Shown here one piece after another: positions 2,335 to 33,685 of a stretch of DNA of 64,000 bases. Both the position numbers and the translations under genes were made by a program. The notes under the pieces are model-generated. The model was not told where the DNA came from, did not search any database, and was given only the letters and a program-made list of their open reading frames with translations. Source of the stretch: Prevotella sp. (lineage in GTDB: Bacteria; Bacteroidota; Bacteroidia; Bacteroidales; Dysgonomonadaceae); the NCBI GenBank assembly GCA_031285625.1, contig JAITVV010000092.1:157679-221678 (forward strand). The letters are read 5' to 3'. Within the stretch, counting starts at the first letter, position 1; every line of letters begins with the position of its first letter.

Positions 2335-3849
2335 TTATAGTTCTATTTTTCTTACTTCGTCCAAAGCGTTCCCACCATTATCTATAGCCGATATGATGTC
2401 AAATATTTTATCGGACCAACCAGCTATCAAATACACATCGTTCTGAGTGATATCCAATGGAGTGTTTCCATAACCGGACAAGTCGAACAGATATAGCTTA
2501 CTGCTTGGTGATATCTTTTTATATTCATTCCATAGATCAGCTATTTTCTTGTCATTTTTGTTGTTCCACAATTGCAAATCAGTAAACATCATGACTTTAT
2601 CCATCTGTTGTTTTCTCTTTATCAGGTCTTCTATTACCAGATAACCGTTGGTTGCATAGCCTACTTCTCCTTCGCGGCGATAGAAAGCATCCACATTAGA
2701 CAATATACCTTGTGTAGGTACATTTATCACCTTCCACTTATCACCGAACATCCCGGTTATGGCATTTTCGCAGCGTGACTTCAATAGCATAGCCAGCATC
2801 AAACCTATATCATAACACAGTATTTTACTTTTAGCAGATACCGGACGTTGCATAGAGCCTGATACGTCACATGCTATCAGTACACTGGTGTCAGCATCAA
2901 AACCTTTTATATTTTCAGCAGATACAGCTACGGCTTTTTCCAATGCATCCAGTACACGGCTTGCATATGCAGACTTCACTTTAGATATTTCACGATACGC
3001 AGCCAGAAAACGGAATGGCAATTGTTTTGAACGACGTACAGCTTCCGGTGAAGCCAACGCACTGCATACTTTTATGATATGCTCTTTCGAAACATTCGAT
3101 TCCAGTATATTACGCAAGTTACGCATCAATGCCATATAGCCTATTTTACCACTATCTATCAGTTCTTCCCATTTGATGCGGAATGCAGTTCCCTTTTCAG
3201 CTTCGGAATCAAATTTTATTTGACCCAATGCAGAAAGTTCTGTTTCCCAAGTATATGGTGTTTCCAATGTATCATTTACTATCTTGTTGAACAAAGCCTG
3301 TTGGTCTTCATCCTTTGCCTTAGGGTGTACAAGAAATAGTGCATCACGAAGTTTTATTTCCGCATCACGATTATATTTTGCAAACTGATATTCATCAAAC
3401 CGGTTGAATGCATTCTGCAATCCGGCTTGTAGCTGTTTCGACAGACGATTTAGTTTCTTTGTGTCTTGTCTTTCATTAGCAAGCTGGTAGTAGGCCAACA
3501 GTTCTGTTATCTCATCTGCACGCTGCACCACTTGCAATACCATTTTGCTTACAGTAGAGTCTCCTCTGTGTATTTTAGCCAACTCTACAGCCAATACCAA
3601 TGGAATTGAACGCAGATTCATCTTCTGGCGTGTATATACAGCCAGCTGTGCTACAAATATCGGGTCACATCGTTTTATCAAACCACGCATTGTTTCAACT
3701 CGGGCTTGCGCGCTTTCGTAAAACTTGTCACTCAATGCAGAGGTAACGGCAGCAGTATACAATTGCCACTCTGGTGATAGACGGTATGCTTGTGCTCCTT
3801 CATAATTTACCACCTTGTTTTTTCCTTTGTTTCTGAAATTGAATTTCAT
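2335..3849 (-). CDS. rsr: Ro60/Rsr orthologue (TROVE + vWA domains)
   Basis: N-terminal NYEGAQAY, TPYTWETELS, GYMALMRNLRN, SKQLPFRFLAAY; vWA MIDAS DVSGSM and MFTD motifs. Confidence 0.92.
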   Translation of the reverse strand: MKFNFRNKGKNKVVNYEGAQAYRLSPEWQLYTAAVTSALSDKFYESAQARVETMRGLIKRCDPIFVAQLAVYTRQKMNLRSIPLVLAVELAKIHRGDSTVSKMVLQVVQRADEITELLAYYQLANERQDTKKLNRLSKQLQAGLQNAFNRFDEYQFAKYNRDAEIKLRDALFLVHPKAKDEDQQALFNKIVNDTLETPYTWETELSALGQIKFDSEAEKGTAFRIKWEELIDSGKIGYMALMRNLRNILESNVSKEHIIKVCSALASPEAVRRSKQLPFRFLAAYREISKVKSAYASRVLDALEKAVAVSAENIKGFDADTSVLIACDVSGSMQRPVSAKSKILCYDIGLMLAMLLKSRCENAITGMFGDKWKVINVPTQGILSNVDAFYRREGEVGYATNGYLVIEDLIKRKQQMDKVMMFTDLQLWNNKNDKKIADLWNEYKKISPSSKLYLFDLSGYGNTPLDITQNDVYLIAGWSDKIFDIISAIDNGGNALDEVRKIEL

Positions 3850-3903: not shown

Positions 3904-3940
3904 CAAAGATTCAAAAACAAGTACGCAGCTTTTTTGCGTA
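3904..3940 (-). promoter_or_regulatory. Ro60 promoter (-7-like AATCTTTG) with palindromic operator TACGCA-N7-TGCGTA (3922-3940)
   Basis: Perfect 6-bp palindrome; recurs at 7402-7420 and 28990-29008 at the same spacing. Confidence 0.7.
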
Positions 3941-4226: not shown

Positions 4227-5138
4227 ATGTTTGAAAAGAAAATCAGTACGGCAATAGGCCGGTATTTCCCATTATTTATAGGATGGAGCCGATATATATT
4301 ATATAAACATCCCGACTGGCTGCTTCGAAAGGATATTCTTAAATATTATGATTCCGTATCTCCATCAGAAATAAATGAAGAACAAGCGGAAGCAGTTTCT
4401 TACATTCGTAAAAAAGGGGCGCATTATTTTCCCTATTCGTTTATTGAAAAGTATAATCCGGAAAAAATAAAAGTATATACAAATGAAAAATGTGGATTAA
4501 AGTATGTATTACATAATGAGAAACGGCTCTATTTTGCAAGAGAAACATCAGCTTTTAATATTCAGAGGATATATACCAACCTTTTGTACGAGCAGGATCG
4601 TAAATCTGCACATTGCTACCAGACTGAGACTTTTAGGATAGAAGAAGGAGACATCCTGTTTGATGTAGGTGCTGCAGAAGGTATATTTTCGTTAACAGTG
4701 ATTGAGAAGGTAAAGAAAGTCTATCTCTTCGAAGTAGAGGAGCGCTGGCTGGAAGCATTACGCGAAACTTTCAAGCCATGGCAGGATAAAGTGGAGATTA
4801 TCTGCAAATATGTATCTGATACGGATAGTGAGCAAACTGCCAAACTGGATACTGTTATAAAAAAGCTTAGTAATGAATCTTTATTTCTTAAACTGGATGT
4901 GGAAGGAGCCGAAAAATTAGTTATCAAAGGAGCAAACGAGATATTAACTTCAGGAAATAATAAAATTAAAGCTGCCGTATGTACCTACCACAATCAAGAT
5001 GATCATGAAGAACTATCGGCTATCATGAAGGATTTAGGATATAGGGTAAGTACATCTCCCGGCTACATGCTTTTTAAGCAACAAAATCTGGCTCCGCCTT
5101 ATCTGAGAAGGGGTTTAATTTATTGTAGTAAAGAATAA
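4227..5138 (+). CDS. FkbM-family SAM-dependent methyltransferase
   Basis: FDVGAAEG (motif I), LFEVE, LKLDVEGAE, CTYH. Confidence 0.85.
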   Translation: MFEKKISTAIGRYFPLFIGWSRYILYKHPDWLLRKDILKYYDSVSPSEINEEQAEAVSYIRKKGAHYFPYSFIEKYNPEKIKVYTNEKCGLKYVLHNEKRLYFARETSAFNIQRIYTNLLYEQDRKSAHCYQTETFRIEEGDILFDVGAAEGIFSLTVIEKVKKVYLFEVEERWLEALRETFKPWQDKVEIICKYVSDTDSEQTAKLDTVIKKLSNESLFLKLDVEGAEKLVIKGANEILTSGNNKIKAAVCTYHNQDDHEELSAIMKDLGYRVSTSPGYMLFKQQNLAPPYLRRGLIYCSKE

Positions 5139-5167: not shown

Positions 5168-6226
5168 ATGACAATACAAGAAATAAAGGACAAAGGGCTA
5201 TTACTATTTGAATGCATAAGTGGCAGTAAGGCATATGGTCTGGATACACCAACTTCTGATACAGACCTGAAAGGAGTATTTTATCTACCGAAAGACCAAT
5301 TCTTCGGACTGGACTATATTACTCAGATAAATAATGAGACCAACGATGAAGTATATTATGAGTTGGGGCGGTTTGTAGAATTGCTTTGTAAAAACAATCC
5401 TAACATACTCGAAATACTAGCTTCCCCTGAAGACCGTATATTATACAAGCATCCTATTATGGATAGCTTAAATATCGAACTGTTCTTATCCAAACTCTGT
5501 AAGGAAACTTTTGCGGGTTATGCTCATTCACAAATCAAAAAGGCCAGAGGCTACAAAAAGAAGATCGTAAACCCGATGGAAAAAGAGCGGAAGGATGTGC
5601 CCGACTTCTGTTATATTCTCGAAGGATATTCTTCTGTTCCGGTAAAAGAGTGGCTACAGGCGAAAGATTACCTTCAGGAAAGATGCGGACTGAGTTCTAT
5701 ACCTCATACTAAAGGAATGTACGCCTTGTTTTATGACGAAGATGATAAATTCAGATATAAAGGAATAGTACATAATCCCGACGCCAATGAAGTTGCTTTA
5801 TCTTCTATACAAAAAGGAGAGAAAGAAGTCGCCTATCTGTATTTTAATGTTGAAGCTTATTCTTTGTATTGTAAAGAGTACAAAGAATACTGGGATTGGG
5901 TTGCCAATCGCAATGAAATACGCTATCAGGGTAATCAGCAACATGGAAAAAATTATGATGCAAAGAACATCATGCACACTATCCGGCTGTTGCAGGTTGC
6001 CGAAGAAATATTGCGTGATGGGAAGCTAAATGTAAAGAGGCCTAATCGAGAACAATTGCTGAATATAAAAGCTGGAATGATGGAATATGATGAACTCTTG
6101 GTAATGGCGGACGACCTGATGCACAGGATAGAGCAATATGTCGGTAAAAGCCACCTGCAAGATATTCCTGATAAGAATAAAATAGAGGAAATATTGATCG
6201 GGATGAGAGTGAAATTATATAAATAG
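5168..6226 (+). CDS. RlaP/YcgL-like DNA polymerase-beta superfamily nucleotidyltransferase
   Basis: SGSKAYGLDTPTSDTDLKGVF (GS...DxD), YELGRF...NNPNILE, YDAKNIMHTIRLL. Confidence 0.85.
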   Translation: MTIQEIKDKGLLLFECISGSKAYGLDTPTSDTDLKGVFYLPKDQFFGLDYITQINNETNDEVYYELGRFVELLCKNNPNILEILASPEDRILYKHPIMDSLNIELFLSKLCKETFAGYAHSQIKKARGYKKKIVNPMEKERKDVPDFCYILEGYSSVPVKEWLQAKDYLQERCGLSSIPHTKGMYALFYDEDDKFRYKGIVHNPDANEVALSSIQKGEKEVAYLYFNVEAYSLYCKEYKEYWDWVANRNEIRYQGNQQHGKNYDAKNIMHTIRLLQVAEEILRDGKLNVKRPNREQLLNIKAGMMEYDELLVMADDLMHRIEQYVGKSHLQDIPDKNKIEEILIGMRVKLYK

Positions 6227-6228
6227 CT

Positions 6229-6657
6229 ATAGATCAGAATAATATATCAGAATTCCTATCTAAAGTTGAAAATATTATTAAGTCTCTTGATGAACTTTCA
6301 GGTTTATCAGACAATTGCATTAAAGAATTCGACGGTACTGAATTTGATGGACAAAGCCAGTTAGCTGGTAAGTTGGATGACCTGTTCCTTATAGCTAGCC
6401 ACGAAATGGCAACACAACTTGCTTTCGTAAAAGAAGATATTCTTATCCTTATAAAGTTCATAAAATTCAGAAAAGGATATCCCCAACTATCGGAAACAGA
6501 GCTCGAACAAATATTAGACACTGAGAATCTGGAACTTAAATTTAAAATGGAGATAAAACCTAAATTGAGAGACCATAGTATTCTTGAAATAAAGGAATTA
6601 TGGAACAATACATTCAACAATAAATCATTCAAGAAGATAATAAACCGGTTCAAATAA
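6229..6657 (+). pseudogene. hypothetical ORF, possibly 5'-truncated
   Basis: Frame is open from about 6223 to the stop at 6657 but has no ATG near its 5' end (track uses TTG 6373); no recognisable motif. Confidence 0.3.
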
Positions 6658-6661
6658 AAAA

Positions 6662-6785
6662 TCAGGGTAATAAGGCGAAAAGGCTGATATAAACCGGCGC
6701 TTTACTTTAAGCTACGAAATCGATAGGTCTTGCACCTATATAATCCGGATCCCAAATCGAAGAAATCCTCTTCTACGACACCTGA
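6662..6785 (-). ncRNA. Y-RNA-like cassette, array unit 5 (3'-most), permuted tRNA-like module
   Basis: Ends UCAGG/CCUGA; module CCGG-AUUAU-[AUAGG UGCAAGA CCUAU]-CGAUUUCG-UA-[GCUU AAAGUA AAGC]-G-CCGG. Confidence 0.78.
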
Positions 6786-6795
6786 AATTATAAAA

Positions 6796-6933
6796 AACAG
6801 AAGTAACAAGCGAAAAGAGCGAGCGGGGCATGGCTTGCCGGAGTCGAACCGGATAGTCTCGCCGGATTTACGACCTCACTATTCCTCCCCTAAAATTGGT
6901 AGCCGAAGTATCTCTCTTCTACGACATTCTGTT
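6796..6933 (-). ncRNA. Y-RNA-like cassette, array unit 4, with T-arm
   Basis: Ends AACAGAA/UUCUGUU; conserved frame; CCGG-UUCGACU-CCGG T-arm and an AUAGU/ACUAU stem. Confidence 0.75.
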
Positions 6934-6943
6934 ATATTTAATC

Positions 6944-7067
6944 AACAAGGCAACAAACGAACAGAGACTATAATAGCTTGCTCTACCCACTGAGCTACAC
7001 CCGAAGATGACAGGAATCGAACCCGTGACCCAGTTAACCGAAGTAACTCTATTCTACGGCACTTGTT
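6944..7067 (-). ncRNA. YrlA-like cassette, array unit 3, permuted tRNA module
   Basis: Ends AACAAG/CUUGUU; GGUC-[ACGGG UUCGAUU CCUGU]-[CAUC UUCG GGUG]-UA-[GCUC AGUGGGUA GAGC]-A. Confidence 0.85.
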
Positions 7068-7085
7068 TGTACTAATTCACAAATA

Positions 7086-7202
7086 AACAAGGTAACAAGC
7101 ATAAAGAGCAAACTTTGTCCAACCTCGGACGTTGCGGGAGTCGAACCCTTTTCATTAATTGGCGTTTAGCAAACGAAGTAACTCTTTACTACGACACTTG
7201 TT
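7086..7202 (-). ncRNA. Y-RNA-like cassette, array unit 2, with T-loop
   Basis: Ends AACAAG/CUUGUU; GGG-UUCGACU-CCC plus a GUCC..GGAC hairpin. Confidence 0.75.
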
Positions 7203-7210
7203 ATATTATT

Positions 7211-7352
7211 TAAACAAGGCAACAAACGAGAAAAGCCTTTTTGATCTGGTGTCCTATTTTACTAGACGACTACAACTTACATTGCTGGCTGTTTTTTCAA
7301 CAGCGTTTCCAGAGTGGATTACGAAGTATCTCTTCCCTACGGCACTTGTTTA
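7211..7352 (-). ncRNA. Y-RNA-like cassette, array unit 1 (promoter-proximal), degenerate permuted cloverleaf
   Basis: Ends UAAACAAG/CUUGUUUA; UCUGG-AAAC-[GCUGU UGAAAAA ACAGC]-acceptor-like hairpin-UC-[GUCU..GGAC]-A-CCAGA. Confidence 0.75.
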
Positions 7353-7384: not shown

Positions 7385-7420
7385 CAAAGTAATAACCTTG
7401 ATGTGCAATCTTTTTGCGCA
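7385..7420 (-). promoter_or_regulatory. array promoter (-7-like TTACTTTG) with operator TGTGCA-N7-TGCGCA (7402-7420)
   Basis: Same architecture as the sites upstream of Ro60 and of the 28.9-kb RNA locus. Confidence 0.7.
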
Positions 7421-28534: not shown

Positions 28535-28581
28535 TTCTTTCTGTCCCATTTATATTAGACAATCTTAATTATATATTCTTG

Positions 28582-28777
28582 TACTCCTAATGAGATTCGA
28601 ACTCATATTCCCTTTCGGGCAGTACGGCTCTAAATACGCTTCCCTACTTTTCAGTTAAGAATTTCGGTGCATCTGTAAAATCTACCCATAACAACGCGCA
28701 GCTATTACGGGGCTATCCATACACTCTATGGTAAGTCTAAATTTTGCCACAGGCTTTTCCTTTTAAGCTATAGGAGC
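28582..28777 (-). ncRNA. tRNA-like RNA (Leu-type body) with a 119-nt structured segment in place of the anticodon loop
   Basis: Acceptor GCUCCUA/UAGGAGU + A73; D arm GCUU/AAGC; anticodon stem UGUGG/CCGUA; variable arm CCC-GAAA-GGG; T arm AUGAG-UUCGAAU-CUCAU. Confidence 0.75.
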
Positions 28778-28784
28778 AAATTAT

Positions 28785-28935
28785 AAACGAGGTAACAGGC
28801 GAAAAGAGACTGTTTATCCTGCTCTACCACTGAGCTACACTCCCGTTAATTTGTATTACTGAGAGAGTGAGGGGACTCGAACCCCCGACCCGGGCATTAA
28901 AAGTGCGAAGTAACTCTAATCTACGACACTCGTTT
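28785..28935 (-). ncRNA. YrlA-like Y RNA with a complete circularly permuted tRNA module
   Basis: Ends AAACGAG/CUCGUUU; frame; GGGUC-[GGGGG UUCGAGU CCCCU]-[CACUCUC..18 nt..GGGAGUG]-UA-[GCUC AGUGGUA GAGC]-A. Confidence 0.87.
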
Positions 28936-28972: not shown

Positions 28973-29008
28973 CAAAGTAAAAGCACCGGAGCGCAGTGTT
29001 TTTGCGTA
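28973..29008 (-). promoter_or_regulatory. promoter (-7-like TTACTTTG) with operator AGCGCA-N7-TGCGTA (28990-29008)
   Basis: Third copy of the Ro60/Y-RNA operator at the same spacing. Confidence 0.7.

Positions 29009-33610: not shown

Positions 33611-33685
<75 letters not shown>

Follow-up and report, generated by a model that had tools for sequence, protein, structure and literature searches.

A tandem array of probable modular Y RNA genes and its linkage to rsr in Bacteroidota

Results

Five RNA units with a constant frame

On its minus strand, from position 7352 to 6662, the window studied here (64,000 nucleotides of contig JAITVV010000092.1 in the Prevotella sp. assembly GCA_031285625.1) carries five head-to-tail RNA units with lengths of 142, 117, 124, 138 and 124 nt, separated by AU-rich linkers of 8, 18, 10 and 10 nt. 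A gene coding for a protein with a TROVE and a Ro60-vWA domain, the Ro60 orthologue rsr, is found 2.8 kb downstream on the same strand. We conclude that the units are bacterial Y RNAs of a Bacteroidota-specific subfamily because their frame covaries, tracks TROVE strictly and sits on the rsr strand; their binding to Rsr is predicted. An initial annotation of the window had drawn the same borders, lengths and linkers, and our independent delineation arrived at identical coordinates (Table 1; designations beginning with L or C are our own handles).

All five units share a frame that encloses a different inner module in each case. The frame consists of a terminal helix, the segment U-G-Y-C-G-U-A, an 8-bp second helix and the segment UACUUCG. 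A unit opens with a strand of 5-8 nt followed by UGYCGUAG-N3-AGRG-NNACUUCG, and at its 3' end CUCU-N3-YG-NYUGUURC precedes a strand complementary to the opening one. The terminal helices differ between the units and are present as they had been quoted in the initial annotation; every unit class retains its own.

A scan of the window with the pattern TGYCGTAG-N3-AG-N6-TTCG found seven matches, all of them on the minus strand, compared with 0.02 expected by chance, and none of 100 shuffles gave as many. The five opening motifs listed previously are among these matches, and the two additional ones (2295 and 28906) explain why the initial annotation spoke of seven units. A search of the whole genome revealed an eighth unit on the same contig and strand, 2.7 kb before the start of the window. 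The pattern also has a ninth match, on another contig and with one mismatch, which was not called by the later model search. Hence, three units lie beyond the array on the same strand of the same contig, and the genome contains eight units. Sister genomes have 5 to 8 units each. In 8/8 genomes the array ends with the classes of units 4 and 5, and the order of the classes is largely conserved.

Covariation of the frame

We delineated 54 units in eight related genomes, choosing their ends partly by pairing, left out one whose borders were wrong and aligned the other 53 with MAFFT (alignment A1), counting pairs on a hand-written frame structure. In this alignment 94.4% of the cells pair, compared with 45-58% when the 3' partners are slid, and there are 171 double-change cells, compared with 14-31 when slid; the observed values were reached in 0/500 shuffles. 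Changes at the Y of GYCG are coupled to changes at the R of UURC, the pair being U-A in 30 units, C-G in 20 and U-G in two. In the second helix, the N3 segment covaries with the 3' strand, and a G-to-A change at the first position is accompanied by a C-to-U change.

When applied to 22 rsr loci that represent 22 further genera and had no part in model building, a covariance model of the frame, R1, gave 112 matches at E-values up to 1e-6 (alignment A4). With the caveat that A4 was fitted to the model, 92.9% of the cells in these 112 units pair (42-53% when slid), compensatory changes occur in 17 of the 19 pairs and the number of double-change cells is 576 (32-84 when slid). RNAalifold recovers the same frame stem unaided. 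The covariation claimed in the initial annotation is thus real both in the eight related genomes and across 22 genera. According to the covariation and to RNAalifold alike, the 5' and 3' ends of the units form a long terminal stem, as is characteristic of bacterial Y RNAs.

Several positions of the frame do not vary at all. In 112/112 units, neither the C-G-U of GYCGUA nor the first U and the two Cs of UACUUCG show any change. The C of GYCGUA is paired in just 60 of the 112 units, and the pair that follows it is a G.U wobble in 93.

Linkage to rsr

The rsr product has a TROVE domain (Table 1), a vWA_Ro60 score of 27.4 bits against a cut-off of 27.7, and a score of 48 bits in the NCBIfam Rsr equivalog model, for which the cut-off is 900. 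The latter value is so far under the cut-off that we regard the protein as a divergent type. Its closest named relatives are Rsr records from Dysgonomonas with 81-84% identity, which makes an origin of the window in that genus or a close relative probable. With unit 5 ending 2.8 kb before the start of rsr, the array lies within about 4 kb of the gene and on its strand. Unit 6 begins 3-10 nt past the rsr stop codon, whereas the distances of units 7 and 8 from rsr are about 25 kb and 5 kb, respectively.

The frame and TROVE occur together far beyond this locus. TROVE is present in 8 of 61 relatives, and R1 matches exactly those 8 and none of the other 53. In an even sample of the phylum comprising 151 genomes, TROVE was found in 12 and R1 in 9, all of which are TROVE-positive, and 0/139 TROVE-negative genomes were matched; every positive genome has its matches on the contig and strand of TROVE, at most a few kb downstream of it. 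Neither sample therefore contains a model-positive genome that lacks TROVE, a co-occurrence that the initial annotation had proposed to look for.

A further 80 rsr loci of other taxa, all outside model building, were fetched with the Rsr protein and analysed with a script that combines the motif with pairing. It found 281 units in 79 loci, 280 of them on the rsr strand and 269 downstream of the gene. The downstream units are located at a median distance of 411 nt from the rsr end, and 263 of the 269 fall within 3 kb. The count per locus has a median of 3 and a maximum of 8, with five or more units in 17/80 loci; an earlier, looser version of the script found units in 78/80. The more sensitive R1 model gave 2-9 units per locus in the 22 loci of other genera (median 5), all on the rsr strand, and 398 matches at E-values up to 0.01 over all 82 sources. 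The taxa represented include Flavobacterium, Pedobacter, Chryseobacterium, Chitinophagaceae, Cytophagales, Parabacteroides and Tannerella. The five-unit array is typical of Bacteroidota, in which multi-gene Y RNA arrays are the normal layout beside rsr.

Modules of the individual units

Within the genome, the modules of paralogous units are only 0.18-0.64 identical. Unit 3 contains a YrlA-type permuted tRNA mimic composed of a T arm, an acceptor-like stem closed by UUCG and a canonical D arm, the only one of its kind in the array. The YrlA order of T arm, acceptor-like stem-loop and D arm is found in units 3 and 7, is degenerate in units 5 and 1 and is absent from units 2 and 4, which combine a T arm with other helices. 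The T loop UUCGA is present in units 2, 3 and 4. The module of unit 5 has a T-like arm with a 5-bp stem and the loop UGCAAGA, as well as a degenerate, GUAG-initiated D-like arm; its 3' internal loop is longer by one nucleotide, and compensatory changes are seen in 14 of its 32 pairs. Unit 1 is related to the type of unit 5 and likewise has a degenerate D-like arm initiated by GUAG, and the hairpin in the homologous position is devoid of the T-loop signature, which the unit 1 orthologue in one sister genome retains. Hence, the initial description of a T-arm-like hairpin in all five units holds for units 2, 3 and 4 and, in the form of a variant loop, for unit 5, but not for unit 1, and of the three D arms counted there only that of unit 3 is canonical.

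Unit 6, which consists of the frame and an 18-nt loop, is a minimal Y RNA with a terminal helix that can be extended to 15 bp (2245-2332). The 155-nt module of unit 8 had no Rfam match in E-value mode. Unit 4 has eight pairs with compensatory changes among eight orthologues. Its module also contains, at 6861-6874 on the minus strand, a small covarying hairpin, GYCG-UAAAWY-CGRC, that echoes the GYCGUAA of the frame; the echo may be due to chance or may constitute a second docking site.

In sister genomes we observed a unit class (L041:6739-6875, L043:7144-7280, L042:6600-6718 and L046:8860-8971) that has a near-complete tRNA shape and in which the frame is seemingly joined via the D loop. As read from alignment A1, its order is GGUAGAGCAG, anticodon-like arm, T arm, closed acceptor stem and GUAGCUCAG, which seems to be a permutation different from that of YrlA.

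The possibility that the modules are copies of rRNA or other genomic RNA was tried and rejected, as blastn-short against the whole genome returned only self-matches and matches of 14-21 nt. The latter touch the modules of units 3, 4, 5, 6 and 7, and none in the genome involves that of unit 8.

Comparison with Rfam and tRNA models

The Rfam YrlA model (RF02553, gathering score 69) matches unit 3 with 35.2 bits and an E-value of 2.2e-5, and has no match to units 1, 2, 4 and 5 at E-values up to 10. Units of the sister genomes score 31-42 bits. These sub-threshold matches coincide exactly with the units that bear both T and D arms. When the gathering threshold is applied to the whole window, Rfam reports tRNA-His only, and Rfam 15 holds no family for the Bacteroidota units beyond the sub-threshold YrlA matches. 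The best score of the Rfam tRNA model in the array is 23.2 bits (unit 5), compared with a gathering score of 29. ARAGORN, run on the window, called only the tRNA-His at 33612, and the array units are not tRNA genes. Taken together with the TROVE gene on the same strand, the position of unit 6 against its stop codon and the strict co-occurrence with TROVE, the sub-threshold match of unit 3 supports the connection to Y RNAs and Ro60 that the initial annotation had proposed.

Two units of a Rapidithrix array (L088:12150-12217 and L088:13238-13305) just exceed the tRNA gathering score, with 30.5 bits against 29, so that tRNA genes may wrongly be annotated in Y RNA modules of this kind. We also observed large tRNA gene clusters a few kb upstream of rsr in one Chryseobacterium locus (L119:2002-7289, 15 Rfam tRNA matches) and one Chitinophagaceae locus (L091:4000-7971, 12 matches).

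A shared operator

The array is preceded by a palindromic operator, TGCGCAAAAAGATTGCACA, and by the box TTACTTTG, which resembles TAnnTTTG, presumably the Bacteroidetes -7 consensus. In nearly all sites, the distance from the operator to the TTTG box after it is constant at about 14 nt; here the box lies about 30 nt before unit 1. The phylum-wide form of the operator is TGCGCAA-N5-TTGCGCA. In this genome, the five highest-ranking operator sites that have a TTTG box at the right distance precede the array, rsr (where the sequence is TACGCAAAAAAGCTGCGTA), unit 7, an operon for Hen1 and Pnkp proteins and the gene for a 443-aa protein. The same operator is found 60-95 nt upstream of rsr in many loci, with at least one match in 65/90 of them. 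Flavobacterium has a second copy directly after rsr and before the Y RNA array. A scan with a sigma-70 promoter tool, which does not cover Bacteroidetes promoters, was uninformative (27 sites against 20.5 expected).

Judging from its sequence, the array is plausibly polycistronic, with one operator-promoter before unit 1, no further operator within the array and a U-rich run after unit 5, the possible end of the array transcript. The shared operator suggests a single RNA-damage regulon. Because it precedes rsr, unit 7 and the Hen1-Pnkp operon, the RNAs are probably induced together with Rsr and the repair enzymes. The operator may be read by a regulator of the HTH-WYL-WCX type, which is also a candidate for the sensor of the regulon. 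Homologues of this regulator are found in 61/90 rsr loci and are mostly encoded divergently from rsr. By analogy, the regulon would be functionally parallel to the RtcR-controlled rsr-yrlBA-rtcBA of Salmonella. RtcB was considered as a further member and rejected, since its gene resides on another contig where the operator scan found no site. The 443-aa protein, in which no Pfam or NCBIfam family was found, may belong to the regulon.

Neighbouring genes and a companion RNA

The Hen1-Pnkp operon, RlaP, an NYN/OST-HTH protein and rsr make up a 20-kb RNA-repair island. RlaP homologues are present in 14/90 rsr loci and the NYN protein in 4/90; the FkbM-type methyltransferase next to rsr has no homologue in the other 90 loci. 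An open reading frame of 139 aa that follows unit 5 (6234-6653, minus strand) was examined as a co-transcribed protein and rejected, having no Pfam family and no tblastn match in 90 loci. By eye its translation is of low complexity, and it is probably not a gene.

Directly after unit 7 we found a tRNA-shaped RNA of about 197 nt that lacks the Y frame. Its 7-bp acceptor stem shows compensatory changes in 7/7 pairs. D and T arms and a discriminator A are also present, and some 130 nt of further helices replace its anticodon and variable region. Among 13 sequences, 28 of the 43 predicted pairs show compensatory changes. It was found by blastn in 19/90 rsr loci, which belong to several orders, and in Flavobacterium it has its own operator copy. 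Rfam returned no match and ARAGORN no call for this RNA.

Table 1. Features of the array, its neighbourhood and the operator sites. Identity ranges are those of orthologues in the sister genomes in which they were found.
Feature	Position	Strand	Remarks
Matches to opening pattern	2295, 6758, 6904, 7039, 7174, 7322, 28906	minus	plus-strand starts; motif scan of window
Unit 1	7211-7352	minus	142 nt; R1 86.4 bits; orthologue identity 0.71 (1/7 genomes)
Unit 2	7086-7202	minus	117 nt; T arm (GGGUUCGACUCCC) and second hairpin; R1 84.0 bits; orthologue identity 0.83 (2/7)
Unit 3	6944-7067	minus	124 nt; R1 103.6 bits; orthologue identity 0.70-0.76 (4/7)
Unit 4	6796-6933	minus	138 nt; GGGG...CCCC-closed module, covarying helix, small GYCG-UAAA hairpin, T arm; orthologue identity 0.79-0.89 (7/7), against at most 0.52 to own paralogues
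Unit 5	6662-6785	minus	124 nt; last unit of array in sister genomes too; orthologue identity 0.62-0.71 (7/7)
Unit 6	2252-2325	minus	frame and 18-nt loop; R1 56 bits
Unit 7	28785-28935	minus	YrlA-type module, 7-bp acceptor-like stem, own operator-promoter; R1 109 bits; orthologue identity 0.80-0.90 (7/7)
Unit 8	L049:9761-9973, outside window	minus	standard frame around conserved 155-nt module; orthologue identity 0.76-0.92 (4/7)
rsr	2335-3849	minus	Ro60 orthologue, 504 aa; Pfam TROVE 6.5e-31
Operator before array	7402-7420	minus	palindromic; among five best genome-wide matches
-7-like promoter box	7385-7392	minus	TTTG box past operator
U-rich run	6651-6661	minus	past unit 5 terminal helix; read from sequence, no call by simple terminator scan
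Operator before rsr	3922-3940	minus	motif scan
Operator before unit 7	28991-29008	minus	motif scan
Operator before Hen1-Pnkp operon	L049:5039-5055, outside window	plus	genome-wide scan
Operator before 443-aa gene	L130:2605-2621, outside window	plus	genome-wide scan
Terminator-like hairpin and U run	2206-2240	minus	after unit 6; terminator scan
FkbM-type methyltransferase	4227-5138	plus	Pfam scan
RlaP-family nucleotidyltransferase	5168-6226	plus	between rsr and array; Pfam RlaP 5.7e-26
Companion RNA, about 197 nt	28581-28777	minus	directly after unit 7; tRNA-shaped, large insertion, no Y frame
Hen1 (N-terminal domain), Pnkp-ligase and Pnkp-kinase-phosphatase operon	L049:5103-8699, 4-7.6 kb before window	plus	Pfam; same operator
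443-aa protein	L130:2658-3989, other contig	plus	53 nt downstream of fifth operator copy
WYL and WCX protein, 337 aa	L076:7092-8105	minus	encoded divergently from rsr
WYL regulator homologue in this genome	C37:141121-142083, 16 kb before window	minus	single copy; 53% identity

Public transcriptome data

Public RNA-labelled runs were examined as assembled contigs only, from which neither starts and ends nor the strand can be read. A metatranscriptome run (X10) gave a single contig of 206 nt, which matches 7135-7340 without differences and joins unit 1 to unit 2. It is compatible with a polycistronic transcript and proves nothing; stretches that X10 leaves uncovered were given no weight.

Discussion

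Comparison with known Y RNAs

In its main text, which makes no mention of Bacteroidetes, Chen et al. 2014 (PMC4201824) propose GNCGAA(N)G as the bacterial Rsr-binding motif, report 355 YrlA-like sequences located near rsr, multiples included, from 254 bacteria and 22 phages, and describe polycistronic Y RNA precursors in D. radiodurans and M. smegmatis. According to the same text, Xenopus Ro60 contacts a bulged helix around GGUCCGA. The succession of two pairs, an often unpaired C and a G.U pair in the units described here resembles this bulged helix. A full-text literature search, whose range ended before the supplementary lists of Chen et al. 2014 and before Burroughs and Aravind 2016, found no account of Y RNA arrays in Bacteroidota, of the frame or of a link between WYL proteins and Rsr. 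Within the known kind of Y RNAs, the units are best regarded as a Bacteroidota subfamily of modular RNAs in arrays.

The closest parallel is YrlA and YrlB of Salmonella Typhimurium (rsr-yrlBA-rtcBA). In both systems, small RNAs with a G-N-C-G type of 5' motif are encoded beside rsr and on the same strand as the gene, and the rsr locus is linked to RNA-repair genes. Salmonella YrlA has the same order of T arm, closed acceptor-like stem and D arm as units 3 and 7, and YrlB belongs to the plain hairpin class, like unit 6. There are also clear differences. Salmonella has two such RNAs, while this genome has eight. The Salmonella-type motif is GNCGAA(N)G, whereas here it is GYCGUAG with an additional invariant UACUUCG. 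Only the 5' strand of the Salmonella stem is recognisable according to the main text of Chen et al. 2014, while both strands are conserved and covary here. Unlike Salmonella YrlA, the units described here stay below the Rfam gathering score, and modules that are not YrlA-like occur among them. Finally, the Salmonella locus is controlled by RtcR and sigma-54, and the array probably by a WYL regulator and a palindromic operator.

Other systems share other features with the array. Deinococcus radiodurans likewise has several Y RNAs near rsr (Yrn1 and Yrn2), which retain both strands of the Ro60 helix and a T arm and are made from a polycistronic precursor, a layout we infer for the array; the bare stem of Yrn2 is comparable to unit 6. 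However, Yrn1 and Yrn2 have no sequence match to our units, for which Rfam gave no match other than YrlA, and the units are far more numerous and more diverse. In M. smegmatis, YrlA and YrlB are two Rsr-bound RNAs from one precursor, and YrlA has a 7-bp acceptor-like stem, as unit 7 does; this stem is the feature that makes M. smegmatis YrlA a substrate of RNase P, as stated in the main text of Chen et al. 2014 (PMC4201824). Unlike the M. smegmatis RNAs, unit 7 is followed by the companion RNA of about 197 nt, which is separate and tRNA-shaped. Vertebrate Y RNAs, of which there are two to four per species, also form a family of paralogues with one Ro60-binding stem and variable loops, and they have in common with our units the layout of two pairs, an often unpaired C and a G.U pair. 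Nevertheless, they are separate genes of RNA polymerase III without tRNA-like modules, and no sequence homology with our units is demonstrable.

Interpretation and alternatives

The most likely explanation is that the five units are five different Y RNA partners of Ro60/Rsr made from one promoter. We assign a probability of roughly 0.8 to this explanation as a whole, in which Y RNA paralogues that dock to Rsr derive from one operator-controlled precursor by processing, are induced together with Rsr and act as adaptor modules.

Several observations weigh against this explanation. The YrlA model stays under its gathering score on every unit (at best 35.2 against 69) and on seven other Bacteroidota loci. 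The motif, GYCGUAG or GYCGUAA with U as its fifth base in 112/112 units, is one base off GNCGAA(N)G. Two plus-strand genes, those of the FkbM-type methyltransferase and of RlaP, separate the array from rsr, in which it differs from most other loci. The R1 matches in the eight related genomes are there by construction, as the model was built from them, and the informative part of that comparison is the 53 genomes without a match. Under strict filters, 3/12 TROVE-positive genomes of the phylum sample have no R1 match. Folding energies of single sequences are no better than those of shuffles (z between -1.73 and +0.92 for seven units). Lastly, runs X3, X8 and X6 cover the whole 8-kb stretch evenly, so that DNA carry-over is possible and RNA cannot be distinguished from DNA in them.

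Of the alternatives, the one that deserves most attention, though we judge it unlikely, is that the units are tRNA-mimic decoys or sensors that act without Rsr, for instance towards tRNA-targeting nucleases or as substrates of RlaP or Hen1-Pnkp, and that their frame is bound by another protein. Most modules do carry tRNA-like T arms, the locus is rich in RNA-repair genes, and our comparison with the main text of Chen et al. 2014 revealed nothing equivalent to the invariant UACUUCG in the published Ro60 sites. However, TROVE is the sole gene that tracks the frame, RlaP and the NYN protein being confined to the small fractions of loci given above, and the frame model does not match a single one of the 139 TROVE-negative genomes. 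In addition, units 6 and 8 have no tRNA-like part.

The initial annotation had gone on to picture the units as interchangeable Ro60 adaptors organised like a cassette array. While its Y RNA and Ro60 part agrees with our findings, its cassette part does not, because the modules have orthologues and their order is conserved. A mobile or recombining array, in which payloads are shuffled into constant frames, would account for the constant ends and dissimilar middles of the units and for their varying number among sister genomes, and yet it is very improbable. The payloads travel with the terminal helix of their class and have orthologues in sister species (Table 1), the classes of units 4 and 5 invariably come last, and scans of open reading frames and Pfam domains in the neighbourhood revealed no integrase, recombinase or recombination site. 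Module orthologues in sister species and the retention of class-specific terminal helices imply a diverging family of paralogous genes and not a set of exchangeable cassettes. We give even less credit to the idea of decaying, functionless repeats or pseudogenes derived from tRNA. The tRNA-like arms, the weak score of 23.2 bits in the tRNA model and the unremarkable folding energies are what it would predict, but decay is hard to reconcile with compensatory changes in 17/19 frame pairs across 22 genera, with invariant motifs, with modules that are conserved between species and with the strict linkage to rsr.

We thus return to the explanation in terms of Rsr-docking Y RNAs, which can be put as the following model. 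The array would comprise five paralogous bacterial Y RNA genes that form part of a genome family of eight. In each RNA, the terminal helix, G-Y paired to R-C, the often unpaired C, the G.U wobble, the 8-bp helix and a single-stranded UACUUCG would together serve as the docking stem for Rsr. This stem would carry an inner module that depends on the class, be it a permuted tRNA mimic of the YrlA type, a minimal loop, the 155-nt module or a T arm combined with other helices. The five units would be transcribed as one precursor from the promoter about 30 nt upstream of unit 1, under control of the palindromic operator, and the precursor would be cut to unit length in the AU-rich linkers. The RNAs would be induced together with Rsr and the repair enzymes, likely by the WYL-domain regulator. 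Deinococcus Yrn1 tethers Rsr to PNPase. By analogy, the different modules may couple Rsr to different partners or RNA classes, or they may gate the Rsr cavity.

A more far-reaching idea, which we put forward tentatively and consider somewhat doubtful, is that each genome holds a library of up to nine modular Y RNAs, in which an invariant stem is combined with different modules (several tRNA-mimic topologies, a D-loop-attached one among them, and the 155-nt module). Such a library would direct Rsr and its partner nucleases or repair enzymes to different classes of damaged RNA, and the entire set, including rsr, the RNA of about 197 nt and the genes of Hen1-Pnkp or other ligases and kinases, would be switched on as one RNA-damage regulon via the 19-bp operator read by the WYL-domain sensor. 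If this is true, the library and its WYL regulon would be the functional counterpart of the RtcR system of Proteobacteria.

Current annotation misses the Y RNAs of Bacteroidota because the Rfam YrlA model stays below its threshold, and a covariance model and clear motifs are now at hand for annotating them. The phylum includes the gut genera Bacteroides and Parabacteroides, whose Ro60 has been discussed, in the part of the literature considered here, as a lupus-related antigen. Given the operator common to these genes and the conserved WYL regulator, the way in which Ro60 and RNA repair are regulated in Bacteroidota is now open to direct tests. Characterised bacteria have two Y RNAs each, and the function of these RNAs is known in detail for essentially one bacterium. 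A phylum with 2-9 Y RNAs after rsr, in which the same Ro60 handle is joined to different modules, amounts to a natural experiment on the adaptor hypothesis.

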